Below, piece by piece: positions 5,504 to 64,000 of a DNA stretch of 64,000 nt. Each line of letters begins with the position of its first letter. The first letter of the stretch is position 1. Made by a program: the position numbers and the translations under genes. The stretch lies in the NCBI RefSeq assembly GCF_963921235.1, contig NC_086097.1:99450001-99514000 (forward strand). Reading direction: 5' to 3'. The notes under the pieces are model-generated. The model made no database searches. It saw nothing but the letters and a program-made list of their open reading frames with translations, and was not told the origin of the DNA. Origin of the DNA: Mobula hypostoma (Eukaryota).

Positions 5504-7526
5504 AACATAGAAGATAGAACATAGAATAGTACAGCACAGTACAGGCCCTTCGGCCCACAATGTTGTGCCGACCCTCAAACCCTGCCTCCCATATAAGCCC
5601 CCACCTTAGATTCCTCCATATACCTGTCTAGTAGTCTCTTAAACTTCACTAGTGTATCTGCCTCCACCACTGACTCAGGCAGTGTATTCCACGCACCAAC
5701 CACTCTCTGAGTAAAAAACTATCCTCTAATATCCCCCTTGAACTTCCCACCCCTTACCTTAAAGCCATGTCCTCTTGTATTGAGCAGTGGTGCCCTGGGG
5801 AAGAGGCGCTGGCTATCCACTATCTATTCTTCTTATTATCTTGTACACCTCTATCATGTCTCCTCTCATCCTCCTTCTCTCCAAAGAGTAAAGCCCTAGC
5901 TCCCTTAATCTCTGATCATAATGCATGCTTTCTGAACCAGGCAGCATCCTGGTAAATCTCCTCTGTACCCTTTCCAATGCTTCCACATCCTTCCGATAGT
6001 GATGTGACCAGAACTGGACACAATACTCCAAGTGTGGCCTAACCAGAGTTTTATAGAGCTGCATCATTACATCGCGACTCTTAAACTCTGTCCCTCGACT
6101 TATGAAAGCTTACACCCCATAAGCTTTCTTAACTACCCTATCCACCTGTGAGGCAACTTTCAGGGATCTGTGGACACGTACCCCGAGATCCCTCTGTTCC
6201 TCCACACTACCAAGTATCCTGCCATTTACTTTGTACTCTGCCTTGGAGTTTGTCCTTCCAAAGTGTACCACCTCACACTTCTCCGGGTTGAACTTCATCT
6301 GCCACTTCTCAGCCCACTTCTGCATCCTATCAATGTCTCTCTGCAATCTTTGACAACCCTCTACACTATCTACAACACCACCAACCTTTGTGTCGTCTGC
6401 AAACTTGCCAACCCACCCTTCTACCCCCACATCCAGGTCGTTAATAAAAATCATGAAAAGTAGAGGTCCCAGAACCAATCCTTGTGGGACACCACTAGTC
6501 ACAATGCTCCAATCTGAATGTACTCCCTCCACTAGCACCCTCTGCCTTCTGCAGGCAAGCCAATTCTGAATCCACCTGGCCAAACATCCCTGGATCCCAT
6601 GCCTTCTAACTTTCTGAATAAGCCTACCGTGTGGAACCTTGTCAAATGCCTTACTGAAATCCATATAAATCACATCCACTGCACTACCCTCATCTATATG
6701 CCTGGTCACCTCCTCAAAGAACTCTATCAGGCTTGTTAGACACGATCTGCCCTTCACAAAGCCATGCTGACTGTCCCTGATCAGACCATGATTCTCTAAA
6801 TGCCTATAGGTCCTATCTCTAAGAATCTTTTCCAACAGCTTTCCCACCACAGACGTAAGGCTCACTGGTCTATAATTACCGGGACTATCCCTATTACCTT
6901 TTTTGAACAAGGGAACAACATTCGGCTCCCTCCAATCCTCCGGTACCATTCCCGTGGACAACAAGGACATAAAGATCCTAGCCAGAGGCTCAGCAATCTC
7001 TTCTCTCGCCTCGTGGAGAAGCCTGGGGAATATTCCGTCAGGCCCCGGGGACTTATCCGTCCTAATGTATTTTAACAACTCCAATACCTCCTCTCCCTTA
7101 ATATCTACATGCTCCAGAACATCAACCTCACTCATATTGTCCTCACCATCATCAAGTTCCCTCTCATTGGTGAATACCGAAGAGAAGTATTCATTGAGGA
7201 CCTCGCTCACTTCCACAGCCTCCAGGCACATCTTCCCACCTTTATCTATAATCGGTCCTACCTTCACTCCTGTCATCCTTTTTTTCTTCACATAATTGAA
7301 GAATGCCTTGGGGTTTTCCTTTACCCTACTCGCCAAGGCCTTCTCATGCCCCCTTTTGCTCTTCTCAGCCCCTTCTTAAGCTCCTTTCTTGCTTCCCTAT
7401 ATTCCTCAATAGACCCATCTGATCCTTGCTTCCTAAACCTCATGTATGCTGCCCTCTTCCACCTGACTAGATTTTCCACCTCACTTGTCACCCATGGTTC
7501 CTTCACCCTACCATTCTTTATCTTCC
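5504..7526 (-). mobile_element. 5'-truncated CR1 LINE nested antisense inside another CR1
   Basis: 408-aa RT ORF (QHGF, DFSKAFD, FADD). Its 3' tail of (ttctatg)-like repeats abuts 5504. Confidence 0.93.
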
Positions 7527-13300: not shown

Positions 13301-16300
13301 CAGTGTAGATTATATCAGTGGATTACAGTGAGTGGTGTTGGGTTCACCAGTTTATTTCAGTGAAGGGTGTGGGGTTCACCAGTTTATTACACTGAGGGGT
13401 CTGGGCTAATCCAGAGTGTTATAGTGAGGGGTGTGGGGTACTCCATTATATTACAGTGAGGGGTGTGGGGTACTCCATTATATTACAGTGAGGGGTGTGG
13501 GGTACACCAGTTTATTACACTGAGGGGTGAGGGGTTCACCAGTTTATTACAGTGAGGGGTCTGGGCTACTCCAGAGTGTTACAGTGAGGGGTGTGGGGCA
13601 CTCCAGTTTATTACAGTGAGGAGTGAGGGGTACTCCAATGGTTTACAGTGATGGGCACGGGGTACTCCAGTTTATTACAGTGAGAGATGTGGGGTACACC
13701 AGAGAGTTACAGTGACGGGTATGGGGTACCCCAGTTTATTTCAGAGAGGGGTGTGGGGTACACCAGAGTGTTACAGTGAGGGGTGTGGGGTTCACCAGTT
13801 TATTACAGTGAGGGGTCTGGGCTACTCCAGAGTGTTACAGTGAGGGGTGCAGGGTACTCCAGTTTATTACAGTGAGGGCTGTGGGGTACTCCAGTTTATT
13901 ACAGTGATGGGCGTGGGGTACTCCAGTTTATTACAGTGAGGGGTGTGAGGTACTCCAGTTTATTACAGTGAGGGGTGTGGGATACTCCAGTGGATTACAG
14001 TGTGGATTATATCAGTGGTTTACAGTGAGGGGTGTGGGATACTCCAGTGTATTGCAGTGTGGATTATATCAGTGGTTTACAGTGAGGGGTGTTGGATACT
14101 CCAGTTTATTACAGTGAGGGGTGTGGGATACTCCAGTGGATTACAGTGTGGATTATATCAGTGGTTTACAGTGAGGCGTGTTGGATACTCCAGTGGATTA
14201 CTGTGTGGATTATATCAGTGGATTACAGTGAGGGGTGTGGGGTACACCTGAGTGTTACAGAGAGGGGTGTGGGGTACCCCAGTTTATTACAGTGAGGGGT
14301 GTGGGATACACCAGTGGATTACAGTGTGGATTATATCAGTGGTTTACAGTGAGAGGCGTGGGGTACTCCAGTTTATTACAGTGAGGGCTGTGGGGTACTC
14401 CAGTTTATTACAGTGATGGGCGTGAGGTACTCCAGTTTATTACAGTGAGGGATGTGGGGTACTCCTTTGGATTACAGTGAGGGGTGTGGGGAACTCCAGT
14501 TTATTACAGTGAGGGCTGTGGGGTACACCAGAGTGTTACAGTCAGGGCTGTGGGGTACTCCAGTTTATTACAATGATGGGTGTGAGGTACTCCAGTTTAT
14601 TACAGTGAGGGGTGTGAGGTACTCCAGTTTATTACAGTGAGGGGTGTGGGGAACTCCAGTTTATTACGCTGAGGGCTGTGGGGTACGCTAGAGTGTTACA
14701 GTGAGGGGTGTGGGATACTACAGTGGATTATAGTGTGGATTATATCAGTGGTTTACAGTGAGGGGTGTGGGATACTCCAGTTTATTACGCTGAGGGCTGT
14801 GGGGTACGCTAGAGTGTTACAGTGAGGGGTGTGGGATACTCCAGTGTATTACAGTGTGGATTATATCAGTGGTTTACAGTGAGGGGGGTGGGATACTCCA
14901 GTTTATTACAGTGAGGGGTGTGGGGTACTCCAATTTATTACAGTGAGGGGTGTGGGGTACTCGAGTGGATTACAGTGAGGGGTGTGGGGTACTCCAGTTT
15001 ATTACAGTGATGGGCATGAGGTACTCCAGTTTATTACAGTGATGGGCATGGGGTACTCCAGTTTATTACAGTGAGGAGTGTGGGGTACTCCAGTTTATTA
15101 CAGTGATGGGTGTGGGTTACTCCAGTTTATTACAGTGAGGAGTGTGGGGTACCCCAGAGTGTTACAGTGAGAGGCGTGGGGTACTCCAGTTTATTACAAT
15201 GAGGGTTGTGGGCTACACAAGAGTGTTACAGTGAGGGCTGTGGGGTACTCCAGTTTATTACAGTGATGGGCATGAGGTACTCCAGTTTATTACAGTGAAG
15301 GGTGTGGGGTACTCCAGTTTATTACAGTGAAGGGTGTGGGGTACTCCAGTTTATTACAGTGAAGGGTGTGGGGTACTCCAGTTTATTACAGTGATGGGCG
15401 TGAGGTACTCCCGTTTATTACAATGAAGGGTGTGGGGTACTCTAGTTTATTACAGTGAGGGATGTGGGGTACTCCATTGGATTACAGTGAGGGGTGTGGG
15501 GAACTCCAGTTTATTACAGTGATGGCTGTGGGGTACTCCAGTTTATTACAGTGAGGAGTGTGGGGTACTCCAGTTTATTACAGTGATGGACGTGGGTTAC
15601 TCCAGTTTATTACAGTGAGGAGTGTGGGGTACTCCAGTTTATTACAGTGAGGAGTGTGTTACAGAGTGTTACAGTGAGAGGCGTGGGGTACTCCAGTTTA
15701 TTACAGTGAGGGGTGTGGGGTACACAAGAGTGTTACAGTGAGGGCTGTGGGGTACTCCAGTTTATTACAGTGAGGGATGTGGGGTACTCCTTTGGATTAC
15801 AGTGAGGGGTGTGGGTTACTCCAGTTTATTACAGTGAGGAGTGTGGGGTACTCCAGTTTATTACAGTGATGGACGTGGGTTACTCCAGTTTATTACAGTG
15901 AGGAGTGTGTTACAGAGTGTTACAGTGAGAGGCGTGGGGTACTCCAGTTTATTACAATGAGGGTTGTGGGCTACACAAGAGTGTTACAGTGAGGGCTGTG
16001 GGGTACTCCAGTTTATTACAGTGACGGGCGTGAGGTACTCCAGTTTATTACAGTGAAGGGTGTGGGGTACTCCAGTTTATTACAGTGATGGGCATGAGGT
16101 ACTCCAGTTTATTACAGTGAAGGGTGTGGGGTACTCCAGTTTATTACAGTGAAGGGTGTGGGGTACTCCAGTTTATTACAGTGATGGGCATGAGGTACTC
16201 CCGTTTATTACAGTGAAGGGTGTGGGGTACTCTAGTTTATTACAGTGAGGGATGTGGGGTACTCCTTTGGATTACAGTGAGGGGTGTGGGGAACTCCAGT

Positions 16301-19300
16301 TTATTACAGTGATGGCTGTGGGGTACACCAGAGTGTTGCAGTCAGGGCTGTGGGGTACTCCAGTTTATTACAGTGACAGGCGTGAGGTACTCCAGTTTAT
16401 TACAGTGAAGGGTGTGGGGTACTCCAGTTTATTACAGTGAAGGGTGTGGGGTACTCCAGTTTATTACAGTGATGGGCGTGAGGTACTCCAGTTTATTACA
16501 GTGAAGGGTGTGGGGTACTCTAGTTTATTACAGTGAGGGATGTGGGGTACTCCTTTGGATTACAGTGAGGGGTGTGGGGAACTCCAGTTTATTACAGTGA
16601 TGGCTGTAGGGTACACCAGAGTGTTACAGTCAGGGCTGTGGGGTACTCCAGTTTATTACAGTGATGGGCGTGAGGTACTCCAGTTTATTACAGTGATGGG
16701 CGTGAGGTACTGCAGTTTATTACAGTGAGGGGTGTGAGGTACTCCAGTTTATTACAGTGAGGGATGTGGGGTACTCCAGAGTGTTACAGTGAGGGGTGTG
16801 GGGAACTCCAGTTTATTACGCTGAGGGCTGTGGAGTACGCTAGAGTGTTACAGTGAGAGGTGTGGGATACTCCAGTGTATTACAGTGTGGATTATATCAG
16901 TGGTTTACAGTGAGGGGAGTGGGATACTCCAGTTTATTACAGTGAGAGGTGTGGGGTACTCCAGTTTATTACAGTGAGGGGTGTGGGGTACTCGATTGGA
17001 TTACAGTGAGGGGTGTGGGGTACTCCAGTTTATTACAGTGATGGGCGTGGGGTACTCCAGTTTATTACAGTGAGGAGTGTGGGGTACTCCAGTTTATTAC
17101 AGTGATGGACGTGGGTTACTCCAGTTTATTACAGTGAGGAGTGTGGGGTAGTCCAGTTTATTACAGTGATGGACGTGGGTTACTCCAGTTTATTACAGTG
17201 AGGAGTGTGTTACAGAGTGTTACAGTGAGAGGCGTGGGGTACTCCAGTTTATTACAATGAGGGGTGTGGGGTACACAAGAGTGTTACAGTGAGGGCTGTG
17301 GGGTACTCCAGTTTATTACAGTGAGGGATGTGGGGTACTCCTTTGGATTACAGTGAGGGGTGTGGGGAACTCCAGTTTATTACAGTGAGGGCTGTGGGGT
17401 ACACCAGAGTGTTACAGTCAGGGCTGTGGGGTACTCCAGTTTATTACAGTGATGGGCGTGAGGTACTCCAGTTTATTACAGTGAAGGGTGTGGGATACAC
17501 CTGTGTATTACAGTGTGAATGATATCAGTGGTTTACAGTGAGGGGTGTGGGATACTCCAGTGTATTACAGTGTGGATTATATCAGTGGTTTACAGTGAGG
17601 GGAGTGGGATACTCCAGTTTATTACAGTGAGAGGTGTGGGGTACTCCAGTTTATTACAGTGAGGGGTGTGGGGTACTCGATTGGATTACAGTGAGGGGTG
17701 TGGGGTACTCCAGTTTATTACAGTGATGGGCGTGGGGTACTCCAGTTTATTACAGTGAGGAGTGTGGGGTACTCCAGTTTATTACAGTGATGGACGTGGG
17801 TTACTCCAGTTTATTACAGTGAGGAGTGTGGGGTAGTCCAGTTTATTACAGTGATGGACGTGGGTTACTCCAGTTTATTACAGTGAGGAGTGTGTTACAG
17901 AGTGTTACAGTGAGAGGCGTGGGGTACTCCAGTTTATTACAATGAGGGGTGTGGGGTACACAAGAGTGTTACAGTGATGGGCGTGAGGTACTCCAGTTTA
18001 TTACAGTGAGGGATGTGGGGTACTCCTTTGGATTACAGTGAGGGGTGTGGGGAACTCCAGTTTATTACAGTGAGGGCTGTGGGGTACACCAGAGTGTTAC
18101 AGTCAGGGCTGTGGGGTACTCCAGTTTATTACAGTGATGGGCGTGAGGTACTCCAGTTTATTACAGTGAGGGGTGTGGGATACACCTGTGTATTACAGTG
18201 TGAATGATATCAGTGGTTTACAGTGAGGGGTGTGGGATACTCCAGTGTGGATTATATCAGTGGTTTACAGTGAGGAGTGTGGGGTACGTCAGTTTATTAC
18301 GGTGTGGATTATATCAGTGGTTTACAGTGAGGGATGTGGGGTACTCCAGAGTGTTACAGTGAGGGGTGTGGGGAACTCCAGTTTATTACGCTGAGGGCTG
18401 TGGAGTACGCTAGAGTGTTACAGTGAGAGGTGTGGGATACTCCAGTGTATTACAGTGTGGATTATATCAGTGGTTTACAGTGAGGGGAGTGGGATACTCC
18501 AGTTTATTACAGTGAGAGGTGTGGGGTACTCCAGTTTATTACAGTGAGGGGTGTGGGGTACTCGATTGGATTACAGTGAGGGGTGTGGGGTACTCCAGTT
18601 TATTACAGTGATGGGCGTGGGGTACTCCAGTTTATTACAGTGAGGAGTGTGGGGTACTCCAGTTTATTACAGTGATGGACGTGGGTTACTCCAGTTTATT
18701 ACAGTGAGGAGTGTGGGGTAGTCCAGTTTATTACAGTGATGGACGTGGGTTACTCCAGTTTATTACAGTGAGGAGTGTGTTACAGAGTGTTACAGTGAGA
18801 GGCGTGGGGTACTCCAGTTTATTACAATGAGGGGTGTGGGGTACACAAGAGTGTTACAGTGAGGGCTGTGGGGTACTCCAGTTTATTACAGTGAGGGATG
18901 TGGGGTACTCCTTTGGATTACAGTGAGGGGTGTGGGGAACTCCAGTTTATTACAGTGAGGGCTGTGGGGTACACCAGAGTGTTACAGTCAGGGCTGTGGG
19001 GTACTCCAGTTTATTACAGTGATGGGCGTGAGGTACTCCAGTTTATTACAGTGAAGGGTGTGGGATACACCTGTGTATTACAGTGTGAATGATATCAGTG
19101 GTTTACAGTGAGGGGTGTGGGATACTCCAGTGTATTACAGTGTGGATTATATCAGTGGTTTACAGTGAGGGGAGTGGGATACTCCAGTTTATTACAGTGA
19201 GAGGTGTGGGGTACTCCAGTTTATTACAGTGAGGGGTGTGGGGTACTCGATTGGATTACAGTGAGGGGTGTGGGGTACTCCAGTTTATTACAGTGATGGG

Positions 19301-20140
19301 CGTGGGGTACTCCAGTTTATTACAGTGAGGAGTGTGGGGTACTCCAGTTTATTACAGTGATGGACGTGGGTTACTCCAGTTTATTACAGTGAGGAGTGTG
19401 GGGTAGTCCAGTTTATTACAGTGATGGACGTGGGTTACTCCAGTTTATTACAGTGAGGAGTGTGTTACAGAGTGTTACAGTGAGAGGCGTGGGGTACTCC
19501 AGTTTATTACAATGAGGGGTGTGGGGTACACAAGAGTGTTACAGTGATGGGCGTGAGGTACTCCAGTTTATTACAGTGAGGGATGTGGGGTACTCCTTTG
19601 GATTACAGTGAGGGGTGTGGGGAACTCCAGTTTATTACAGTGAGGGCTGTGGGGTACACCAGAGTGTTACAGTCAGGGCTGTGGGGTACTCCAGTTTATT
19701 ACAGTGATGGGCGTGAGGTACTCCAGTTTATTACAGTGAGGGGTGTGGGATACACCTGTGTATTACAGTGTGAATGATATCAGTGGTTTACAGTGAGGGG
19801 TGTGGGATACTCCAGTGTGGATTATATCAGTGGTTTACAGTGAGGAGTGTGGGGTACGTCAGTTTATTACGGTGTGGATTATATCAGTGGTTTACAGTGA
19901 GGGGTGTGGGGTACCCCAGTGGATTACAGTGTGGATTATATCAGTGGTTTACAGTGAGGGATGTGGGGTACTCCTTTGGATTACAGTGGGGGGTGTGGGG
20001 TACTCCAGTTTATTACAGTGACGGGTGTGGGATACACCAGTGTATTACAGTGTGAATGATATCAGTGGTTTACAGTGAGGGGTGTGGGATACACCAGTGG
20101 ATTACAGTGTGGGGTGTATCAGCATGATAGAGTGAGAAGT
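10345..20140 (+). repeat. ~9.8-kb minisatellite, ~32-bp unit (cagtgaggggtgtggggtactccagtttatta) with higher-order repeats
   Basis: Visible tandem array. Matching ORF translations recur at 17328/18898 and 18013/19583, giving a 1570-bp period. Confidence 0.97.
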
Positions 20141-22744: not shown

Positions 22745-25260
22745 GAAACAGAAACATAGAAAATATACAGCGCAATACAGGCCCTTCGGCCCACAAAGCT
22801 GTGCCGAACATTTCCTTACCTTAGAACTACCTAGCCTTACCTATAACCCTCTGTTTTTCTAAGCTCCATGTACCCATCCAGGAGTCTCTTAAAAGCCCTT
22901 ATTGTTTCTGCCTCCACCACCGCCGTCAGCAGCCCATTCCATGCACTCACTGCATAGAAAACTTACCCCTGACGTCTCCTCTGTACCTACTTCCAAGCAC
23001 CTTAAAACTGTGCCCTCTCGTGCTAGTCATTTCAGCCCTGGGAAAAAGCCTCTGACTATCCACACAATCAATGCCTCTCATCATCTTATAGACCTCTATC
23101 AGGTCACCTCTCATCCTCCGTCGCTCCAAGGAGAAAAGGCCGAGTTCACTCAACCTACTCTCATAAGACATGCTCCCCAATCCAGGCAACATCCTCGTAA
23201 ATCTTCTCGGCACCCTTTCTATGGTTTCCACATCCTTCCTGTAGTGAGGCAACCAGAACTGAGCACAGTACTCCAAGTGGGGTCTGACCAGGGTCCTATA
23301 TAAGCTGTAACATTACCTCTTGGCTCTTAAACTCAATCCCATGGTTGATGAAGGCCAATGCACCGTATGCCGCCTTAACCACAGAGTCAACCTGCGCAGC
23401 AGCTTTGAGTGTCCTATGGACTCGGACCCCAAGATCCCTCTGATCCTCAATACTGCCAAGAGTCTTACCATTAATGCTATGTTCTGCCATCATATTTGAC
23501 CTACCAAAATGAACCACTTCACACTTATCTGGGTTGAACTCCATCTGCCATTTCTCAGCCCAGTTTTGCATCCTATCAATGTCCCGCTGTAACCTCTGAC
23601 AGCCCTCCACACTATCCACAACACCCCCGACCTTTGTGTCATCAGCAAATTTACTAACCCATCCCTCCACTTCCTCATCCAGGTCATTTATAAAAATCTC
23701 GAAGAGTAGGGGTCCCAGAACAGATCCCTGAGGCACACCACTGGTCGCCAACCTCCATGAAGAATATGACCCATTTATAACCACTCTTTGCCTTCTGTGG
23801 GCAAGCCATTTCTGGATCCATAAAGCAATGTCCCCTTGGATCCCATGTCTCCTTACTTTCTCAATAAGCTTTGCACGGCGTACCTTATCAAATGCCTTGC
23901 TGAAATCCATACACACTGCATCTACGGCTCTACTTGTGTCTAGATAAGGAACTGTCTATCGTTGTTTGCAACTGTGTCCATGCCTTCGCTACGTAGGTCC
24001 GGCCATTTGCCGCTACCTTGTGTTGAGAACCGTCTCTGTGTCCACGCCTTCGCTAGGTAAGTCAGGCCATTTGCTGCTACCTTGTGCTGAGAACTGTCTC
24101 TCTGTGTTCTGTGTATGAGTCCCGGCCCTACGTCCTGTTCCCGAGGAGGGGTCCCGGCTCTGTGTTCCATGTTCCTGTCTCTCAAGACCAAGGTTCTGTG
24201 TTCTGTGTTCCTGTCTCCCAAGACCGAGGCTCTGTGTTCTGGGGTCCGAGCCCGAGTCAAGACCCAGGTTCCGGGTCCCTGTCCAGTCTCTGGCTCGGAG
24301 TCCTTGTCCAGGTTCCAAGTTCCTTGTTCCTCATCCAGGTCCCACTTTCCTAGTCTAGTCCTAACCCAGGTCCTGTATCCTAGTCTTGTCCAAGGCCTGT
24401 GTCTTGTCCAGCATCATTTCTTCCCCACTTCCCTTGCTGTCTTTTCACACCTAGTCCTGTTCCTAGTACTTCAGTGTCTGTGTCTTGCATCTGGGTCCGC
24501 CACCAGCGACCTCGTATGACACCCTCGCTTCCCACAGTAGCCTGAGGTACATCCCATCCGGTCCTGGTGACTTATCCAACTTGATGCTTCCTAAAAGCTC
24601 CTCTTCCTTAATATCTACATGCTCAAGCTTTTCACTCCGCTGCAAGTTATCCCTACAATCGCCAGGATCCTTTTCCATAGTGAATATTAAGCAAAGTACC
24701 TCTGCTATCTCCTCCGGTTCCGTACACACTTTTCCACTGTCACACTTGATCGATCCTATTCTCTCACATCTTATCCTCTTGCTCTTCACAGACTTGTAGA
24801 ATGCCTTGGGGTTTTCCTTAATCCTGTCCGCTAAGGCCTTCTCATGGCCCCTTCTGGCTCTCCTAATTTCATTCTTAGTCTCCTTCCTGCAAGCCTTATA
24901 ACCTTCTAGATCTCTATCATTACCTAGTTTTTTCAAACCTTTCGTAAGCTCTTCTTTTCTTTTTGACTAGATTTACAACAGTCTTAGTACACCACAGTTC
25001 TTGTACCCTACCACCTTTTCCCTGTCTCATTGGAACGTACCCATGCAGAATCCATACATTTCCCTGAGAACATCTGTTTCCAGGTTATGCTTCCAAGTTC
25101 CTGCCTGATAGCCTCATATTTCCCCTTACTCCAATTAAACGCTTTCCTAACGTGTCTGTTCCTATCCCTCTCCAATGCTATGGTAAAGGAGATAGCATTG
25201 TGATCACTATCTTCAGAACGATCTCCCACTGAGAGAGCTGACACCAGAGCAGGTTCATTC
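22745..25260 (-). mobile_element. CR1 LINE inserted in the LTR element, itself interrupted at 23935-24521
   Basis: RT peptides (DFSKAFDKV, FADD, KSPGPDG). The CR1 3' tail is at 22745. Confidence 0.9.
23935..24521 (+). mobile_element. Probable partial Gypsy-type solo LTR with internal tandem repeats
   Basis: Non-CR1 insert with internal direct repeats, ending gcatctgggtcc...tgaca. The adjacent CR1 RT sequence is deleted. Confidence 0.5.
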
Positions 25261-43919: not shown

Positions 43920-45014
43920 CCCTCTGGTCATAGAAACCTCTGGTCGTAGACGCCTCTGGTCATAGAAACCTCTGGTCATAGAAACCTCTGGTCATAGAGG
44001 CCTCTGGCCATTGACACCTCTGGCCATTGACGCCTCTGGTCATAGAGGCCTCTGGTCATAGAGACCTCTGGTCATAGAGGCCTCTGGTCATAGACCCCTC
44101 TGGTCATAGACACCTCTGGTCATAGAAACCTCTGGTCACAGACACCTCTGGCCATAGACACCTCTGGCCATTGACGCCTCTGGTCATAGACCCCTCTGGT
44201 CATAGAGGCCTCTGGTCATAGAGGCTTCTGGTCATAGACGCCTCTGGTCATAGATGCCTCTGGCCACAAACGACTCTGGCAACAGACACCTCTGGCCACA
44301 GACGCCTCTGGCCATAGACGCCTCTGGCCATAGAAGCCTCTGGCCATAGAAACCTCTGGCCATAGACGCCTCTGGTCATAGAAACCTCTAGTCATAGAAA
44401 CATCTGGCCATAGACACTTCTGGCCATAGATGCCTCTGGTCATAGACGCCTCTGGCCATAGACACCTCTGGTCATAGACACCTCTGGTCATAGAGGCCTC
44501 TGGTCATAGAGGCCTCTGGTCATAGAAACCTCTGGTCATAGAGGCCTCTAGTCATAGAAACCTCTGGCCATAGACACCTCTGGCCGTAGACGCCTCTGGC
44601 CATAGACACCTCTGGCCATAGACGCCTCTGGCCATTGACGCCTCTGGTCATAGACCCCTCTGGTCATAGAGGCCTCTGGTCATAGACGCCTCTGGTCATA
44701 GATGCCTCTGGCCACAAACGACTCTGGCAACAGACACCTCTGACCACAGACGCCTCTGGCCATAGACGCCTCTGGCCATAGAAACCTCTGGCCATAGACG
44801 CCTCTGGTCATAGACGCCTCTGGCCATAGACACCTCTGGTCATAGACACCTCTGGTCATAGAGGCCTCTGGTCATAGAGGCCTCTGGTCATAGAAACCTC
44901 TGGTCATAGAGGCCTCTAGTCATAGAAACCTCTGGCCATAGACACCTCTGGCCGTAGACGCCTCTGGCCATAGACACCTCTGGCCATAGACGCCTCTGGT
45001 CATAGAGGCCTCTG
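43920..45014 (+). repeat. 16-bp minisatellite (cctctggYcatagaNN), about 68 units
   Basis: Direct tandem array. The variant block gccacaaacgactctggcaac recurs about 448 bp apart. Confidence 0.96.
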
Positions 45015-52432: not shown

Positions 52433-52722
52433 CACCCTGACCTGTAATAGCATGGCATTAGCTGCTCGCCCTGACCTGTAATAGCATCTCACTAGCTGCT
52501 CACCCTGGCCTGTAATAGCACCTCACTAGCCGCACACTCGACCTGTAATAGCATCTTACTAGCCGCTCACCCGACCTGTAATAGCATCTCACCAGCCGCT
52601 CACCCTGACCTGTAATAACATCTCACCAGCCGCTCACCCTGGCCTGTAATAGCATCTCACTAGCTGCACACCCTGGCCTGTAATAGCATCTTACTAGCCG
52701 CTCACCCTGACCTGTAATAGCA
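52433..52722 (+). repeat. ~32-33-bp tandem repeat (ctgacctgtaatagcatctcactagccgctcacc)
   Basis: About 9 degenerate units visible. Confidence 0.85.
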
Positions 52723-53444
52723 TTACTTGGAAAATGTAAGCCGTCTGTTCCTGTAACTTTTAATCAGGACCAGGAACAAAACCACACCCACTCCTCATCC
52801 TCATCGAAGCTCGTTCAATCCAGATGTCCTCCTGACATCAGCAGTTCTACCCCTCATCTCCGTCCTGTGTGTCTGTACTCATCATCCCCCTCATCTCAGT
52901 CCGGTGTCTGTGTCTCCCCCTGTGCTGACTGTAGTCAGAGGACACCTATCCTCAGACATAGGAGTGGGTGTGATGTTATCTTTCTCACTCTCACGTAGAT
53001 TGCTGAATCTTTCCTCTTCTCCCTCCTCCAATCAGGTGCCCTTCCAAACCACATCAAGGGGGTTTATTAATACTTTTGAGTACTTGAACCGTCTGACATC
53101 AACACCATCTCTTCCAAAGTCTGCCTAGGAATTGACCAGAGGCCACTCACATGCACCGCCCAGCCACCTGTCGGGCCTTTGGAAGTCCAGCTGGCCCAGT
53201 TACACATCATGGATGTTGCTGTCAATGGCTCTGCGGCAGCAAACATCATCCCAACTGGTTCCCACTCATGTGCAGTGACTTGGCAAATTTTCTGTTTTTG
53301 TTAATGAACGTGTTACTTCCTTCCCAACAGATAAGATGACAACAGAAGATCTTGATTAAGCACAGTGCTGGGATCGCTGGCAAACACCCATTTGTATATC
53401 TGACATTTTTTCTATCACTATCAGAGTCATTCTCCTCAGAACTG

Positions 53445-54400
53445 AACATCTACCTGCTGAACAAAGTCTACTCACGTTTGGATAAGCAGGGCAGCACTGT
53501 GAGGGTCATGTTTTTCGATTTCTCGAGTATCTTCAATACCACACACCCCTCATTGCTGGGGGAAAAGCTTTGTTCAATGGAGGTTGACACTTCCATTGTA
53601 TCCTGGAAGGACTACCTGATGACGGACCACAGTTTGTGCAGCCTCAGAGGTGTGTGTCAAACATGGCTATAAGCAGCACTGCGGCCCCACAGGGAACTGT
53701 ATTGGTTCCCTTCTTGTTTACCCTGTATACGTTGGACTTTAGATATAACACTGAGTCATGTCATCTGCAGAAATCTGATGACTCAGCAACAGTTGGGTGT
53801 GCAAAGGGAGGACAGGGGGATGAATACAGGACCCTGGCCAGAGACCCCTCTAATTCCTGAGGAGACCAAGGTCCTTTGGAGGATGCAGGCCTCTCCTTGA
53901 CATGTTCTACCAGTCTGTTGTCACCAGTACAATTTCTATGTTGTGGTGTGCTGGGGCAATGGCATCAACATGGGTAATACCAACAGGCTCAATAAACTGA
54001 TTAGAAAGGCTGGCTCTGTTATAGGAGTAAAATTGGACACAGTGGAGGCTGTGGCAGAACAAAGGACCCTCCGGAAAATCCTGGCAATTCCAAACAATGT
54101 TTCTCACCCTCTGCATGCCACCTTGGCTGAACAGAAAAGCACTTTTAGTAACAGACTAAGACATCTGTGCTGCTAAGAGCTCTAAATGAGGTTATTCTTG
54201 CCCTCGGCCATTAGACTCCATAACGAGTAAACCTATAACTGGAGAAGTGATGACCCTCTCCTGTAAGACTATTTGTGGCAACTTATTTTTAATTCCTTCT
54301 ACTCTTCTAATATTTGTATATTTGTGTATCTGTCCACTTGTAGCACTACTGTGAGACTGCAATTTCCTTTGGGATCAATGAAGTATTTATTTATCTATCT
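53445..54400 (+). mobile_element. Rex1/Babar-like LINE 3' fragment
   Basis: 'VRVMFFDFSS.FNT', 'APQGTVL.PFLFTLYT', 'VCWG...RLNKLIRKA', and a (tatc)n-like tail. Confidence 0.75.
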
Positions 54401-54738: not shown

Positions 54739-55408
54739 GGGGGAGAAGATGGCGGCGCGACGGCAGCGCGCGCGGCCTCTCCGGTGATGAATATCTGTTA
54801 TCTGTCAAGTACGGGACTGTGCACAATTCCTGATTTGATGGAGACAGACGTGAGTGCATAGTGGAACATCTGGAAAACTTCTGAAACGTCTGCTTTGCTA
54901 CCACTGCTACTGTGTGGTAACCAGAATCTCTGGTGCTGTAGGCCTCAAAATCCTCGGCCTTGCGTGTTTCAGCGGACGGGAAGAGGTCAAAGGCGCTCGG
55001 GTGGCTGTATCGGAGGGCTGGTCGGAAGCTCGAAGTTTTCAGACGGATGGACTCAGTGTCGGCTGTGGTCGGCTGCTTCCAAGGCATCGGCAAGTTGACG
55101 GTGCCTGGAGGTATATGGCAGGGAGTTTCTCCCTTTTGCCGCCTGCTATCGGGGACTCGGAGTTGATCAACTCGGGGACTTTGAGACTATTTTTTTTTAC
55201 TGTGCCCATGGTCTGTTCTTCTTCAAATTCTGGTATTGCTTTGCACTGCTGTAACTATATGGTATAATTATGTGGTTTTGTCAGTGTTAGTCTTTGGTCT
55301 GTCTTGTTTTCTGCGGATATCACACCGGAGAAACATTGTATCATTTCCTAATGCATGTCTGCATTTCTAAATGACAATAAAAGAGGACTGAGTGTTCTCA
55401 TAATCTAA
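54739..55408 (+). mobile_element. CpG-rich non-autonomous retroposon-like element
   Basis: Starts ggggagaagatggcggcg, has AATAAA and a short taatctaa tail, and interrupts an older repeat. No coding remnant recognised. Confidence 0.5.
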
Positions 55409-55729
55409 ACCCTAACTGTGAATAAAGCCAAACATTCCTCCAGGGCCAAACTGCACACAGCACACAGCACACAGTACACAGCACACAGCACACAGTACAC
55501 AGCACACAGCACACAGTACACAGCACACAGTACACATTACACAGCACACCGCACACCACACACCGTACACAGCACACAGCACACAGAGCAACGCACACAG
55601 TACACAGTACACAGCACACAGCACACAGCACACAGCACACCACACACGACACACCGTACACAGCACACAGCACACAGCACACAGTACACAACACACAGCA
55701 CACCGTACACAGCACACAGTACACAGCAC

Positions 55730-57911
55730 AAGACCTACAAGATCAACAAGGACTACAAGATCTTCGCCCGGGCAATGGCCAACCGTCTGGGTTCGGTAAT
55801 TGGACAGGTGGTCCATCCTGACCAATCTTACACAGTCCCGGGCCGCTCCATCCAGGACAATGTCCACCTAGTACGGGACCTGATCCACTTACTCCAGGAG
55901 ACTGGGACCCCGGCAGCGTTTCTTTCTCTTGACCAGGAGAAGGCGTTTGACCGGGTGGACCACAGTTTCCTGCTGGGCACCCTGCAGGCTTTTGGGCTCG
56001 GACCACACTTTGTGGCCCGAGTTCGGCTCCTGTACTCTGCTGCAGAGTGCCTAGTTAAGATTAACGGATCATTGACAGGACCTATCCACTTCCGAAGAGG
56101 AGTGCGTCAAGGGTGCCCCATGTCCAGTCAACTGTATGCGATCTGTGTCGAGCCATTCCTCAGCCTTCTTCGGCGAAGGCTGACAGGTCTGGTTCTGCGC
56201 GAACCGGACATGGGGGTCGTCCTCTCGGCCTACGCCGATGATGTACTCCTCATGATGACAGACCCCTGTGACCTGTGGAGGATGCGCGAGTGCCAAGATG
56301 TTTTCTCGGCGGCATCCTCCGCCAGGATCAACTGGGCGAAATGTTCCGGACTCTTAGTAGGCCAGTGGCAGGTAGACTCCCTGCCGGAGGAGATGAGAGC
56401 TTTTGAGTGGAGCACCAGACGTCTTCTCTATCTGGGAGTCTGCCTGAATCCTTCTGGGGAGACCTGGCTGGCGAACTGGCAGAACCTGGAGACAAAGGTC
56501 ATGGCCCGGCTAGGGCGCTGGTCAGGCCTTCTCAGGGTGCTTTCCTATCGAGGCAGGGTGGTGGTCATAAACCAGCTGGTGGCCTCCATGTTGTGGTACC
56601 GGATGGTCACCTTGGCACCCCCCCCCCGCCCCTTTTGTTGCGAGAATGCAGAGGAAGCTAGTGGACTTCTTCTGGGGAAACAGGAAACACTGGGTCTCTG
56701 CAGCGGTTCTGAGTCTCCCAGTAGGAGAGGGCGGACAGTCGCTGGTGTGTGTACGCACACGACTGGCGGCTCTCCGCCTCAGGACTCTGCAGAGATTCCT
56801 GTATGCCGAGCACCCTCCCAGGTGGCACGTGTTGGCGACTTTCTTCCTCCGGAGGGGCTGCTGTCTTGCCGAAGATATTCAGCTACCGCCGGCGGGTGTC
56901 AGCCGTGCTGCTTTGCAGAGGCTGCCAGGCTTCTATCAGGACCTACTGAGAGTCTGGAACATGGTTGCCTCAGGCCGGGAATCCCCTCCTCTGGCAGAGG
57001 GCGGGGTCCTGGCCGACCCTTGCCCTGCCTCAGCGGATGTCGGTGCGGCTCAGGTGTGTGGATCGACTCAAGCTGAACTGCTCGTCGGGCCCAGGCCCCG
57101 CAGCCTTACCCGAGAGACGAATCCACACAACTTGAGCCGTCTCTCATTCAGGGATGCAGGCAGGAGGTACCTTTATGGGCTATTGCTCCACACCCTCCAC
57201 TTCCTAGCCCTTGTCCACCGTCCCGACACGCCATGGCGGTCGGTCTTCCCACCTGGAGGTGAGGGGGGTCCCCAATGGAAGTCCCTTTACAAGGGAGTCC
57301 TTCCCATGCACCTCGGGGATCTCGGCTGGAGGGTGCTGCATAAAGTGGTGCCCTGCAATAAGTTCTTTAGTCTGTACACGGATCTCCCAGCCGCGTGTCA
57401 CTTCTGCGGGTTGGAGGAGACTGTGTACCATATGTACGTGGAGTGTGTGAGGTTGCAGCCTCTTTTCGCGTATTTGCGTGGGCTGCTTCTCGCCTTCTGG
57501 TTGCATTTCAGTCCCACCCTATTCATATATGGTCATCCAGTAAGGAGGGGGGCACAGAGGGATGAGGATGTCCTTGTCAACTTGCTCCTGGGGCTGGCGA
57601 AAATTGCCATCCGTGGCTCCTGGAAAAGGGTGGCAGGAGGTTCTCTCAGGGCGGACTGCCTGGCTATGTTTAGGGGGTATGTTCGTGCCCGGGTGAACAT
57701 TGAAAAGGAATACGCACAGTCCACGGCGACCGTAGAGGTGTTCCCGGACCGTTGGGCTCCGCGGGGTGTAAATGCCATCATTGATGAGGATGGCAATATA
57801 TTGGTTTAAGATGTATTGTCTGTTTGTAGTGTAGTAAATATGTTAGTCACTGGTTTTGTAAATATTGTATAGCACCGACATTTGTAATAAAGAATTTTGT
57901 TTAAAAAAAAA
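55730..57911 (+). mobile_element. Tx1-like (L1 clade) non-LTR retrotransposon, 5'-truncated copy 1
   Basis: RT motifs 'DYKIFA..LDQEKAFD..GVRQGCP..AYADD', a C-terminal 'CHFCG..ETVYH...C' zinc motif, AATAAA and poly(A). One frameshift in a C-run near 56620. Confidence 0.92.
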
Positions 57912-58789
57912 GTACACAGCACACAGCACACAGTACACAGTACACAGTACACAGTACACAGTACTCAGTACACAGCACACCGCACACCACACCACACAGT
58001 ACACAGCACACAGCACACAGTACACAGCACACAGTACACAGTACACAGCACAGAGCGCAACGCACACAGTACACAGTACACAGCACACCGCACACCACAC
58101 CACACAGTACACAGCACACAGCACACAGTACACAGCACACAGCACACAGTACACAGTACACAGCACACAGTACACAGCACACAGCACACAGTACACAGCA
58201 CACAGTACACAGCACACAGCACACAGCACACAGTACACAGCACACAGTACACAGTACACAGCACACAGCACAAAGTACACACCACACAGTACACAGTACA
58301 CAGCACACTGTACACATCACACAACACACAGTACACAGCACACAGTACACAGTACACAGCACACAGCACACAGTACACAGTACACAGTACACGGCACACA
58401 GCACAACGCACACATTACACAGTACACAGCACACAATACACAGCACACAGCACACAGTACACACCACACCACACAGCACACAGTACACAGTACACAGTAC
58501 ACAGCACGCAGCACACCACACAGCACACAGCACACCGCACACCGCACACAGTACACAGCGCAATGCACACAGTACACAGTACACAGCACACAGTACACAG
58601 TACACAGTACACAGTACACAGCGCGCAGCACACCACACAGCACACAGCACACCGCACAACGCACACAGTACACAGCGCAACGCACACAGTACACAGTACA
58701 CACCACACAGCGCAACACACACAGCACACAGTACACAGTACACAGCACACAGCACACAGTACACAATACAAAGCACTCAGCACACAGTA

Positions 58790-59778
58790 TGTCCAGACAC
58801 ATGTCTGGAACATGGTTGCCTCAGGCCGGGAATCCCCTCCTCTGACAGAGGGCGGGGTCCTGGCCGACCCTTGCCCTGCCTCAACGGATGTCGGTGCGGC
58901 TCAGGTGTGTGGATCGACTCAAGCTAAGCTGCTCGTCGGGCCCAGGCCCTGCAGCCTTACCCGAGAGACGAATCCACACAACTTGAGCCGTCTTTCATCG
59001 ACACCCACAATCCCATTCAGGGATGCAGGCAGGAGGTACCTTTATGGGCTGCTGCTCCACACCCTCCACTTCCTAGCCCTTGTCCACCGTCCCGACACGC
59101 CATGGCGGTCGGTCTTTCCACCTGGAGGTGAGGGGGGTCCCCAGTGGAAGTCCCTTTACAAGGGAGTCCTCCCCATGCACCTCGGGGATCTCGGCTGGAG
59201 GGTGCTGCATAAAGCGGTGCCCTGCAATAAGTTCTTTAGTCTGTACACGGATCTCCCAGCCGCGTGTCACTTCTGCGGGTTGGAGGAGACTGTGTACCAT
59301 ATGTACGTGGAGTGTGTGAGGTTGCAGCCTCTTTTCGCGTATTTGCGTGGGCTGCTTCTCGCCTTCTGGTTGCATTTCAGTCCCACCCTATTCATATATG
59401 GTCATCCAGTAAGGAGGGGGGCACAGAGGGATGAGGATGTCCTTGTCAACTTGCTCCTGGGGCTGGCGAAAATTGCCATCCGTGGCTCCTGGAAAAGGGT
59501 GGCAGGAGGTTCTCCCCGGGCGGACTGCCTGGCTATGTTTAGGGGGTATGTTCGTGCCCGGGTGAACATTGAAAAGGAATACGCACAGTCCACGGCGACC
59601 GTAGAGGTGTTCCGGGACCGTTGGGCTCCGCGGGGTGTAAATGCCATCATTGATGAGGATGGCAATATATTGGTTTAAGATGTATTGTCTGTTTGTAGTG
59701 TAGTAAATATGTTAGTCACTGGGTTTGTAAATATTGTATAGCACCGACATTTGTAATAAAGAATTTTGTAAAAAAAAA
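58790..59778 (+). mobile_element. Tx1-like copy 2 (shorter 5' truncation)
   Basis: Nearly identical to the 3' part of copy 1 but retains 18 nt that copy 1 lacks. Has poly(A) and a 31-bp TSD-like flank. Confidence 0.92.
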
Positions 59779-61938
59779 GTACACAGTACAAAGCACTCAG
59801 CACACAGTACACAGCACACCGCACACAGTACACCGCACACAGCACACAGTACACAGTATACAGTACACAGCACACAGTACGCAGTACACCGCACACAGCA
59901 CACAGTACACAGTACACAGCACACAGCACACAGCACACAGCACACAGTACACAGCACACAGTACACAGCACACAGCACACAGTACACAGCACACAGTACA
60001 CAGTACACAGTACACCGCACACAGCACACAGTACACAGTACACAGTACACAGCACACAGTACACCGCACACAGCACACAGTACACAGTACACAGCACACA
60101 GTACACAGCACACAGTACACAGCACACAGCACACAGTACGCAGTACACAGCACACAGCACAAAGTACACACCACACAGTACACAGTACACAGCACACAGT
60201 ACGCAGTACACTGTACACAGCACACAGTACGCAGTACACTGTACACAGCACACTGTACACATCACACAGCACACAGTACACAGCACACAGTACACAGTAC
60301 ACAGCACACAGCACACAGTACACAGTACACAGTACACGGCACACAGCACAACGCACACATTACACAGTACACAGTACACAGCACACAATACACAGCACAC
60401 AGTACACACCACACCACACAGCACACAGTACACAGTACACAGCACGCAGCACACCACACAGCACACAGCACACCGCACACCGCACACAGTACACAGCGCA
60501 ATGCACACAGTACCCAGTACACAGCACACAGTACACAGTACACACCACACAGCACACAGTACACAGTGCACATTACACAGTACACAGCACACAGTACACA
60601 GTACACAGTACACAGCGCGCAGCACACCACACAGCACACAGCACACCGCACACCGCACACAGTACACAGTACACAGCGCAACGCACACAGTACACAGTAC
60701 ACACCACACAGCGCAACACACACAGCACACAGTACACAGTACACAGCACACAGCACACAGCACACAGTACACAGTACACACCACACAGCGCAACACACAC
60801 AGCACACAGTACACAGCACACAGTACACACCACACCACACAGCACACAGTGCAACACACACAGCACACAGTACACAGTGCACATTACACAGTACACAGCA
60901 CACAGTACACAGTACACAGCACACAGCACACAGTACACAGTACACAGCACACAGCACACAGTACAAAGCACTCAGCACACAGTACACAGCACACGGTACA
61001 CAGCACACCGCGCACAGTACACCGCACACAGCACACAGTACACAGTATACAGTACACAGCACACAGTACACAGCACACAGTACGCAGTACACCGCACACA
61101 GCACACAGTACACAGCACACAGCACACAGCACACAGTACACAGCACACAGTACACAGCACACAGCACACAGTACACAGCACACAGTACACAGTACACAGC
61201 ATACAGCACACAGTACACAGTACACAGCACACATTACACAGCACACCGCACACCACAGCACACAGTACACAGCACACCACACACCACACAGCACACAGCA
61301 CACCACACATAGTACACAGTACACAGCACACCACACACAGTACACAGTACACACCACACCACACAGCACACAGCGCAACACACACAGCACACAGTACACA
61401 GTGCACATTACACAGTACACAGCACACAGTACACAGTACACAGCACACAGTACACAGTACAAAGCACTCAGCACACAGTACACAGCACACGGTACACAGC
61501 ACACCGCACACAGTACACCGCACACAGCACACAGTACACAGTATACAGTAAACAGCACACAGTACACAGCACACAGTGCGCAGTACACCGCACACAGCAC
61601 ACAGTACACAGTACACAGCACACAGCACACAGCACACAGCACACAGTACACAGCACACAGTACACAGCACACAGCACACAGTACACAGCACACAGTACAC
61701 AGCACACAGCACACAGTACACAGTACACAGCACACATTACACAGCACACCGCACACCACACCACACAGTACACAGCACACAGTACACAGCACACCACACA
61801 CCACACAGCACACAGCACACCACACATAGTACACAGTACACAGCACACAACACACCACACAGCGCAACGCACACAGTACACAGCACACAGTACACAGCTC
61901 ACAGCATAATGCACACAGTACACCGTACAGAGTAATAC

Positions 61939-61978
61939 ATAGCACCGACATTTGTAATAAAGAATTTTGTTACAAAAA
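61939..61978 (+). mobile_element. Tx1-like copy 4, 3' terminus only (~40 bp)
   Basis: atagcaccgacatttgtaataaagaattttgt is identical to the 3' UTR end of copies 1 and 2, followed by A's. Confidence 0.85.
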
Positions 61979-62605
61979 GTACACAGCACACAGCACACAG
62001 TACACAGCACACAGTACACAGTACACAGTACACAGCACACAGTACACAGCACACAGTACACAGTACACAGCACACAGCACACAGTACACCGCACACAGCA
62101 CACAGTACACAGTACACAGCACAAAGTACACAGCACACAGTTCACAGTACACAGTACACCGCGCACAGCACACAGTACACAGTACACAGTACACAGCACA
62201 CAGTACACCGCACACAGCACACAGTACACAGTACACAGCACACAGTACACAGCACACAGTACACAGTACACAGCACACAGTACACAGCACACAGCACACA
62301 GCACACAGTACACAGCACACAGTACACAGTACACAGCACACAGCACAAAGTACACACCACACAGTACACAGTACACAGCACACTGTACACATCACACAAC
62401 ACACAGTACACAGCACACAGTACACAGTACACAGCACACAGCACACAGTACACAGTACACAGTACACGGCACACAGCACAACGCACACATTACACAGTAC
62501 ACAGTACACAGCACACTGTACACATCACACAACACACAGTACACAGCACACAGTACACAGTACACAACACACAGCACACCGTACACAGCACACAGTACAC
62601 AGCAC

Positions 62606-64000
62606 AAGACCTACAAGATCAACAAGGACTACAAGATCTTCGCCCGGGCAATGGCCAACCGTCTGGGTTCGGTAATTGGACAGGTGGTCCATCCTGACCA
62701 ATCTTACACAGTCCCGGGCCGCTCCATCCAGGACAATGTCCACCTAGTACGGGACCTGATCCACTTACTCCAGGAGACTGGGACCCCGGCAGCGTTTCTT
62801 TCTCTTGACCAGGAGAAGGCGTTTGACCGGGTGGACCACAGTTTCCTGCTGGGCACCCTGCAGGCTTTTGGGCTCGGACCACACTTTGTGGCCCGAGTTC
62901 GGCTCCTCTGTACTCTGCTGCAGAGTGCCTAGTTAAGATTAACGGATCATTGACAGGACCTATCCACTTCCGAAGAGGAGTGCGTCAAGGGTGCCCCATG
63001 TCCAGTCAACTGTATGCGATCTGTGTCGAGCCATTCCTCAGCCTTCTTCGGTGAAGGCTGACAGGTCTGGTTCTGCGCGAACCGGACATGGGGGTCGTCC
63101 TCTCGGCCTACGCCGATGATGTACTCCTCATGATGACAGACCCCTGTGACCTGTGGAGGATGCGCGAGTGCCAAGATGTTTTCTCGGCGGCATCCTCCGC
63201 CAGGATCAACTGGGCGAAATGTTCCGGACTCTTAGTAGGCCAGTGGCAGGTAGACTCCCTGCCGGAGGAGATGAGAGCTTTTGAGTGGAGCACCAGACGT
63301 CTTCTCTATCTGGGAGTCTGCCTGAATCCTTCTGGGGAGACCTGGCTGGCGAACTGGCAGAACCTGGAGACAAAGGTCATGGCCCGGCTAGGGCGCTGGT
63401 CAGGCCTTCTCAGGGTGCTTTCCTATCGAGGCAGGGTGGTGGTCATAAACCAGCTGGTGGCCTCCATGTTGTGGTACCGGATGGTCACCTTGGCACCCCC
63501 CCCCCCGCCCCTTTTGTTGCGAGAATGCAGAGGAAGCTAGTGGACTTCTTCTGGGGAAACAGGAAACACTGGGTCTCTGCAGCGGTTCTGAGTCTCCCAG
63601 TAGGAGAGGGCGGACAGTCGCTGGTGTGTGTACGCACACGACTGGCGGCTCTCCGCCTCAGGACTCTGCAGAGATTCCTGTATGCCGAGCACCCTCCCAG
63701 GTGGCACGTGTTGGCGACTTTCTTCCTCCGGAGGGGCTGCTGTCTTGCCGAAGATATTCAGCTACCGCCGGCGGGTGTCAGCCGTGCTGCTTTGCAGAGG
63801 CTGCCAGGCTTCTATCAGGACCTACTGAGAGTCTGGAACATGGTTGCCTCAGGCCGGGAATCCCCTCCTCTGGCAGAGGGCGGGGTCCTGGCCGACCCTT
63901 GCCCTGCCTCAGCGGATGTCGGTGCGGCTCAGGTGTGTGGATCGACTCAAGCTGAACTGCTCGTCGGGCCCAGGCCCCGCAGCCTTACCCGAGAGACGAA
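62606..64000 (+). mobile_element. Tx1-like copy 3, duplicate of copy 1, runs off the window
   Basis: Same 5' junction and upstream flank as copy 1 at an offset of 6876 bp. Carries an extra 2-nt insertion and a TGA stop. Confidence 0.92.

Follow-up and report, generated by a model that had tools for sequence, protein, structure and literature searches.

A stretch of 64,000 nucleotides from the genome of Mobula hypostoma (contig NC_086097.1, positions 99,450,001 to 99,514,000 of the forward strand, hereafter the window) holds, inside an array of 7-bp satellite units, several pieces of a long interspersed nuclear element (LINE) of the Tx1 clade. Genome-wide, this family is target-specific for another repeat, a 52-bp minisatellite that has no occurrence in the window, and its complete copies begin with a head of minisatellite sequence that is borne by the element and is not a target-site duplication (TSD). 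The explanation that fits these observations best, and that we consider quite probable as a whole, is a young Tx1 LINE that has the minisatellite as its main target and the 7-bp array as a secondary one, that entered this array two or three times before recombination rearranged the copies, and that carries a 5' head resembling that of R2.

The target of the family was read from its 3' ends, taken as exact copies of the element's final 28 nt in the 3.48 Gb genome, of which there are 193. Of the first 100 ends, 56 lie in the minisatellite, 1 in the minisatellite reversed, 16 in other tandem repeats, 5 in the array of the window and 22 in non-tandem sequence, and these classes hold 52, 1, 15, 3 and 22 of 93 ends after 7 duplicates are dropped. 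These counts follow contig order and are not a random draw, which weighs against taking the proportions too literally; 17 more ends were read (117 in all), and the 5'-end sample was kept out of the target counts. Insertion into the minisatellite is precise, and the step CACTCCC|RGGGTCAG is used by 55 of the 56 minisatellite ends and by 64 of the 65 forward ones among the 117. This minisatellite family, which also has 58-67-bp unit variants, amounts to about 62,000 units, about 3.2 Mb or about 0.09% of the genome, as estimated from the counts of two exact words, corrected for the fraction of units in which each word occurs, and the enrichment of insertions in it is roughly 600-fold. A passage of PMC4494074 calls a Tx1 family target-specific when 20% of its flanks have one sequence. 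By this rule the family is target-specific for the 52-bp minisatellite (56/100, or 52/93 deduplicated), and it is not so for the satellite that begins with GTACACAG (5/193, one locus). Flanks made of (TC)n, (TTC)n or U2 snRNA were not seen among the 117 ends, by eye or with Tandem Repeats Finder, and two flanks start with GA-rich units of 47-48-bp repeats. Copies cluster at 105-119 Mb of contig C12, 120-124 Mb of C22, 235-245 Mb of C2, 4-8 and 107-113 Mb of C18 and 20-35 Mb of C80; some of these copy-rich regions are interstitial, and they are presumably dense in minisatellite.

An earlier note, made from the window alone, had proposed that the family is specific for a CA|GTACACAG site in a (CACAG/YACACAG)n satellite. 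It rightly described the family as target-preferring and the array as hit more than once in one orientation, and its three joins of poly(A) to GTACACAG, at 57912, 59779 and 61979, are exact. In addition, insertions are more frequent per base in the array, at 2-3 in about 6 kb, than in the 52-bp minisatellite, where there are about 33 per Mb. The pattern of element end, tail and GTACACAG, which misses tails longer than 12 letters, is nevertheless found at only 5 of the 193 ends, every one of them in this array, and 2 of those 5 are duplicates. None of the other 112 ends read has the 7-bp repeat as flank start, the satellite hardly occurs outside this locus (71 of the 73 genome-wide matches of a 22-mer are here), and complete copies carry a different repeat, the minisatellite, as their head. 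The preferred flank is the minisatellite and not GTACACAG. The exclusive form of that note's reading is refuted, the reading as such is highly improbable, and the 7-bp array is likely a secondary target site.

The element itself is a young, ORF-intact non-LTR (long terminal repeat) retrotransposon of the Tx1 clade. A full-length natural copy (L106), of the kind that the earlier note had asked for, measures 6341 nt from its first unique base and has a CpG-rich 5' untranslated region (UTR; observed/expected 0.96), a separate open reading frame (ORF) 1 of 684 amino acids with a zinc knuckle (zf-CCHC), and an ORF2 of 1220 amino acids. The latter matches Exo_endo_phos (4e-19), RVT_1 (3e-38) and, below the curated cut-off, zf-RVT (2e-4), and its endonuclease matches L1-EN structures. 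Since both ORFs are open in 18 of 47 complete copies and four copies equal the column majority over 950 nt, the family is taken to be young. In three complete copies of contig C33 (L111, L112 and L113), ORF1 and ORF2 read through as a single open frame about 1920 codons long. Among named full-length relatives of ORF2, the best is Xenopus Tx1 (YTX2_XENLA), with 53% identity over 78% of the length and 62% in the reverse transcriptase (RT) region, and a Hemitrygon protein holds an 88% identical piece. In an RT tree rooted at its midpoint, with no human L1 as outgroup and with 33 rows chosen by the authors from 120 listed (2 short rows were omitted), the family falls in one clade with Xenopus Tx1 and with sturgeon and turtle elements (9 of the 33 rows, support 100/99), which bears out the Tx1-like identity first suggested from the window. 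Poly(A) tails, 5' truncations and TSDs, mostly of 5-17 nt at off-target sites, are the marks of target-primed reverse transcription. The betaB6-betaB5 loop of the endonuclease has 8 residues between its anchors, as it also does in a Heterodontus relative, against 12 in Tx1L and in 50 of the 58 homologues parsed. A section of PMC1950540 links this loop to target selectivity, and one may guess that the short form is tied to a looser specificity. No description of the family, its target or its hairpin was found in the literature, for which titles and the starts of abstracts were searched, leaving aside subscription papers, Repbase and Dfam.

Exact 5' ends number 104 in the genome, and a second pattern, with CAGACACAGAG directly upstream, gives 99. 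The possibility that CAGACACAGAG is a TSD of 16 bp was considered and rejected, as copies with a variant unit in the 3' flank have a canonical head: their 5' 12-mer shows the canonical form in 17 of 17 cases (2 copies without an anchor were omitted) and in 10 of 12 further ones (one of the 12 matches neither form), making 27 of 29 in total. Canonical heads occur even in arrays that have no canonical unit nearby. Truncated copies, by contrast, duplicate the variant of their own flank and so have true TSDs (sites 19, 51 and 101). The 107 distinct 5' ends divide into 87 within arrays, 5 behind the tail of another copy and 15 outside; 4 of these 15 lie in short repeat remnants, and the other 11 bring minisatellite heads of 4, 6, 7, 18, 19, 21, 22, 22, 25, 26 and 37 nt to sites elsewhere, so that 8 of the 11 off-target complete copies have a head of 18-37 nt. 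Of the 52 insertions in the minisatellite 33 are complete, as are 5 of the 41 at other sites (Fisher p 5e-7). The head of complete copies is therefore element-borne, and the DNA junctions imply that the RNA would begin in the upstream target array. Several points weigh against this account. Complete copies could be in excess in the minisatellite because selection acts against them at other sites, one of the 12 further heads follows the variant of its flank, and the base at -16 (A or G) agrees with the flank in 20 of 27 cases. This last agreement indicates that the switch from target to RNA-derived sequence is often near the junction, and that the RNA-derived part is often shorter than 16 nt. 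Contigs of four runs, whose kind was guessed, cover the 5' end and its flank, one of them reaching 24 nt into the minisatellite, and they were not used as evidence. One complete copy (L101, C22:124465792) was nicked about 60 nt before a lone minisatellite unit and has more than 100 nt duplicated up to that unit; it looks as if its 5' join had been set by head homology rather than by a nearby second nick.

The head has a counterpart within the element. Bases 6-27 are the imperfect reverse complement of 21 nt of minisatellite around the nick, and the first 27 nt, antisense to the head, are predicted to form with it an 18-bp hairpin (-27 kcal/mol, with a z of -4.9 computed on a window picked after the fold was seen). 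Compared with every 30-nt window of the element, the head pairs best with this arm, and in 5000 shuffles no duplex was as good. The complementarity, like the junctions, the counts and the head, is directly observed. Seven of the 11 off-target heads stop at 18-26 nt, near the predicted base of the stem, and older copies, whose 5' UTRs are 81-94% identical, use the same site and mostly keep the stem. On the other side, a two-sided compensatory change was not seen by eye, and some older copies break pairs of the hairpin. A distinct sister family suited to covariation did not emerge from a search with ORF1, which gave this family and older copies down to 64% identity. A known ribozyme at the 5' end was also considered and rejected, given that Rfam has no match at E up to 5, the hammerhead core CUGAnGA..GAAA is absent from both strands, and neither a topology like that of the hepatitis delta virus (HDV) ribozyme nor a TS-like GCUCAA/GCUAG loop, as depicted in part of PMC11620745, is apparent by eye.

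It could also be argued that head and antisense arm are a fixed, captured 5' end, the fossil of an old snap-back junction, in a family driven by an internal CpG-rich promoter that needs no read-through from the array and has a hairpin without function. The CpG-rich 5' UTR fits this proposal, snap-back junctions do arise in the family (copy 2 of the window, see below), and the lack of a visible compensatory change fits as well. Moreover, the minisatellite-derived bases of the loop have drifted within the lineage, from the TGAAG of the minisatellite to TGGAG and then AGGAG, so that at least the loop is inherited as element sequence. The off-target heads, on the contrary, vary from 4 to 37 nt and hold differing unit variants (A or G at -16, GAC for GTC), as is expected if each was copied from the flank of its own donor. 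We regard a captured end as a possibility of clearly lesser weight, and an element-borne head renewed from the flanking minisatellite remains the preferred reading.

The choice of site was approached through a motif matrix built from 34 off-target, that is non-minisatellite, sites with readable pre-insertion context. These sites are C-rich at -5 to -2, where G is nearly absent. At -1 they have A, in part because they were anchored after the tail, and at +1 G occurs in 21 of 34. When held out, 23 of the 34 fall in the local top 10% by the matrix, and CTCCCA|GGG is the top frequent site in 2 of the 4 minisatellite arrays scanned. On the 7-bp array the summed odds per kb reach 7841 on the used strand, 62 on the other strand and about 1370 in random DNA. 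The load sits on the used strand, where CACA|G recurs every 7 bases, and this accounts for a cluster of one orientation. The matrix has its own weak points: 11 non-minisatellite sites without a usable TSD were omitted from it, the used site is not among the frequent top scorers in the other 2 minisatellite arrays, the load on the 7-bp array is just about 6 times that of random DNA while the insertion density is far higher, and a 32-bp minisatellite at 10345-20052 of the window has a similar load and no copy. The idea that the 9-position motif by itself makes the hot spot was rejected on these last two grounds. The joins in the window are at GTACACA in 3 of 3 cases and at GCACACA in none, and with about half of the units being GTACACA this has a chance of about 1 in 10; a strict preference is indistinguishable from chance with 3 joins.

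Other tandem repeats hold 18 of the 41 off-target sites (first 93), against a background of 3.5% that was taken from 400 kb at 40 arbitrary places and comes mostly from one 10-kb stretch, and domains of LTR-retrotransposon type were found in 10 of the 19 non-repeat flanks scanned. This excess of tandem repeats and LTR-element interiors suggests that a regional or chromatin factor likely acts too. In its strong form, the idea is that targeting works mainly via a chromatin or tethering factor at GC-rich repeats (minisatellites and young Gypsy elements), the endonuclease picking only the register. Both excesses and the merely 6-fold motif effect at the array speak for it; the single-base, single-strand register of 64 of 65 minisatellite ends, the recovery of the minisatellite site by a motif learned off target, and a background estimate that comes from few arrays speak against it. 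It is compatible with the best explanation, and as the main cause we hold it only tentatively. Two independent insertions (L061 at C9:97307505 and L066 at C12:80559317) hit one LTR-retrotransposon family at an identical base, where the surrounding sequence is similar to the minisatellite site, and seven further copies (L034, L089, L063, L150, L058, L096 and L155) lie in two short LTR-retrotransposon regions, in both orientations.

In the window, four + strand pieces of the LINE lie inside the (GTACACA/GCACACA)n array, which runs past the window end to window coordinate 69833. With the full-length copy as query, blastn confirmed these four pieces and found no others of the family in the 64 kb, as the earlier note had described, but they do not represent four insertion events. 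Satellite block 1 (55453..55730) ends with GTACACAGCACA, which is also the start of the flank after copy 1, a 12-nt TSD that is not diagnostic inside a repeat. Copy 1 (55731..57911) is 5'-truncated and begins, after an extra piece of 19 nt that is partly repeated (55731-55749), at nt 4178 of L106; it contains an RT fragment, a frameshift at a poly-C run near 56618, the C-terminal zinc-binding region, AATAAA at 57886 and a tail TTTA9. Block 2 (57912..58789) separates it from copy 2, and its last 31 nt, which include rare GTACAAA-GCACTCA units, equal the first 31 nt after copy 2 with 1 mismatch, a probable TSD. Copy 2 (58790..59778) is truncated at nt 5376 of L106 and includes 13 extra nt (58790-58802) that form an imperfect inverted repeat of its own first bases. 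Block 3 (59779..61934) is followed by copy 3 (61935..61978, start approximate), about 45 nt that comprise the last 31 nt of the 3' UTR, matching the full-length copy, and a tail TTACA5, without a clear TSD. Block 4 (61979..62606) is a mosaic that agrees fully with block 2 over 244 nt and ends exactly as block 1 does, and copy 4 (62607..64000, continuing to window coordinate 64790) is a recombinant duplicate. All of these, blocks and copies, are on the + strand.

Copies 1, 2 and 3, whose tails are visible, differ from each other in 5' end and tail, so that the differing truncations and tails noticed earlier hold for copies 1 and 2. They do not hold for copy 4, whose 5' break, 19-nt extra piece and preceding satellite are those of copy 1 (1389 of 1393 letters equal), and which ends, 790 nt past the window, with the variants, the tail and the flank of copy 2. 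As its 5' junction is that of copy 1 and its 3' junction that of copy 2, copy 4 is not a new insertion. A fifth 3' end just outside the window repeats copy 3 (45 nt) with its flanks and block 3, which recurs after copy 4, the two copies of this block differing by 2 substitutions and a few indels of 7-14 nt units over about 2.1 kb. With copy 4 and the fifth end being duplicates, the five ends reduce to at most three insertions. The array therefore likely received 2-3 separate insertions and was then partially duplicated by recombination, with copy 3 probably, though not certainly, the third independent one. For arrays of this size genome-wide, a rough Poisson estimate expects 0.006-0.03 with two hits and fewer than 1e-4 with three, which makes the local excess real, even though the window was picked because of the cluster.

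The alternative that one insertion gave rise to all array copies, multiplied and trimmed in the satellite by unequal crossing-over, had been foreseen in the earlier note, and it does apply to copy 4 and to the fifth end, which are demonstrable duplicates. It draws further support from copies 1 and 2, which are sisters in the tree (support 0.97) and have in common 5 changes, private or nearly so, within a central tract about 340 nt long, an affinity that weakens their independence, as well as from copy 3, which has no clear TSD and is followed by the same first 29 nt as copy 1. Yet over the last 950 nt, where 932 letters of copies 1 and 2 align, 16 of these disagree and there is an 18-nt deletion besides; the subfamily-diagnostic states of the two copies are different at both ends of this stretch. 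At columns 251, 320, 375 and 967 copy 2 has the majority state and copy 1 the states of 10-22 other copies, while copy 2 has minority states of its own at columns 83 and 348, common to 12-15 others. In addition, the tails differ, and copy 2 has an inverted 5' junction of its own as well as a 31-nt duplication in which rare units occur. Because of this junction and duplication, two insertions are preferred, and in our reading the tract in common reflects local gene conversion between them; a single origin is unlikely. It could also be that the duplicated segment (copy 4, the block 3 repeat and the fifth end) is an assembly artefact that places two haplotypes in tandem. The near-identity of the two block-3 copies agrees with this, and copy 4 is the expected product of a deletion between copies 1 and 2 on the other haplotype, whereas the mosaic of blocks 2 and 1 in block 4 fits a real unequal exchange. 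An artefact is thus conceivable but the less favored reading, and recombination after two or three insertions is retained. The window illustrates that several same-orientation copies in one repeat can stem from few insertions plus recombination.

As for the surroundings, a GC-rich SINE-like (short interspersed nuclear element) or short repeat element at 54740-55410, ending in a short A/T-rich repeat, adjoins the satellite. Besides the 32-bp array (9.7 kb), which scores high for the motif, the window has a 16-bp array at 43921-45014 and a 34-bp array at 52433-52723, none of the three with a copy of the LINE; tandem repeats including the 7-bp array make up more than 20% of the window, against 3.5% in the 400-kb sample. 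RT and RNase H frames of an LTR retrotransposon at 65-1599 (- strand) resemble, in their GC-richness, the elements that often flank off-target copies. Other LINE pieces, at 4093-5517 (+), 6110-7375 (-), 23296-23955 (-) and 53340-54176 (+), contain one endonuclease frame, two RT frames and a stretch of decayed, RT-like sequence without a Pfam match.

The proposed model, in which we infer the nick chemistry, the transcription start, the annealing and the function of the hairpin, is as follows. An apurinic/apyrimidinic (AP)-type endonuclease would nick the bottom strand at a loose step from C-rich sequence to purine (top strand CCC-A/T|GG), whose best match would be CACTCCC|RGGGTCAG in the 52-bp minisatellite. 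The 7-bp array would match this step every 7 bases on one strand only (CACA|G), fixing the orientation of its insertions, and reverse transcription would be primed at the nick. The minisatellite is where source copies are located and where their RNA likely starts, so that a complete cDNA would end in some 20 or more minisatellite bases; by annealing to the target, these could make full-length joins precise, as happens in R2. The antisense first 27 nt and the head, closing the predicted 18-bp hairpin, may define or shield the RNA's 5' end. A bolder version, which we consider rather improbable, holds that a LINE with an AP-like endonuclease (APE) has reinvented the strategy of R2 on a non-coding minisatellite, as an old, short-loop elasmobranch lineage transcribed from the array and selected for its antisense 27 nt. 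The hairpin would then be a new kind of element that serves in processing, cleaves itself or blocks exonucleases, or else a guide pairing with the target strand, the head of about 20 nt that it leaves would make more than half of the insertions full-length and precise, and the endonuclease loop, shortened as in the shark relative, would reflect a relaxed specificity that seeks tandem repeats.

Among known systems, Tx1L of Xenopus laevis is alike in its two ORFs, its ORF2 with APE, RT and zinc-binding regions, its clade and its preference for a target. According to an excerpt of PMC1950540, Tx1L inserts in the DNA transposon Tx1D and its endonuclease nicks almost only that site, whereas the present family has about 56% of its insertions in a 52-bp minisatellite, with the rest scattered, and a betaB6-betaB5 loop 4 residues shorter. 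Tx1 families that target repeats are already known, namely Kibi in (TC)n, Koshi in (TTC)n, Keno in U2, the crocodilian Tx1-Mar, Tx1-8_Crp and Tx1-4_AMi in LTR retrotransposons, and those with unnamed 'Sat' targets in Fig. 3 of PMC4494074. The present family is a further one; it resembles them in its repeat targets, its partial specificity and its tandem copies around a short piece of target (5 of 107 5' ends here), and differs in the target itself. Being young, with copies still intact, a main target that it hits exactly and near-misses that can be read, and with about 104 of 193 ends 5'-complete, this vertebrate LINE offers a clean system for site choice by an APE endonuclease and for 5'-end joining in LINEs, a step that is still poorly understood. 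If head and hairpin cause the 5' completeness, they would provide a design rule for retrotransposon-based insertion tools and a case of convergence with R2. Parts of PMC3774820 state that R2 RNA keeps 13-36 nt of upstream 28S sequence, and that the upstream target bases of its cDNA anneal to give uniform junctions; an annealing of retained target bases is also raised for SINEU in a portion of PMC4494074. Both R2 and the family described here have a target-derived 5' head, uniform full-length junctions and a pairing of target and element in a 5' RNA stem, which is predicted in our case. R2 combines these with a restriction-like endonuclease, a transcribed rDNA target and an HDV-like ribozyme, in contrast to the APE-type enzyme, the non-coding minisatellite and the simple predicted hairpin, without a known ribozyme core, of the Mobula family.

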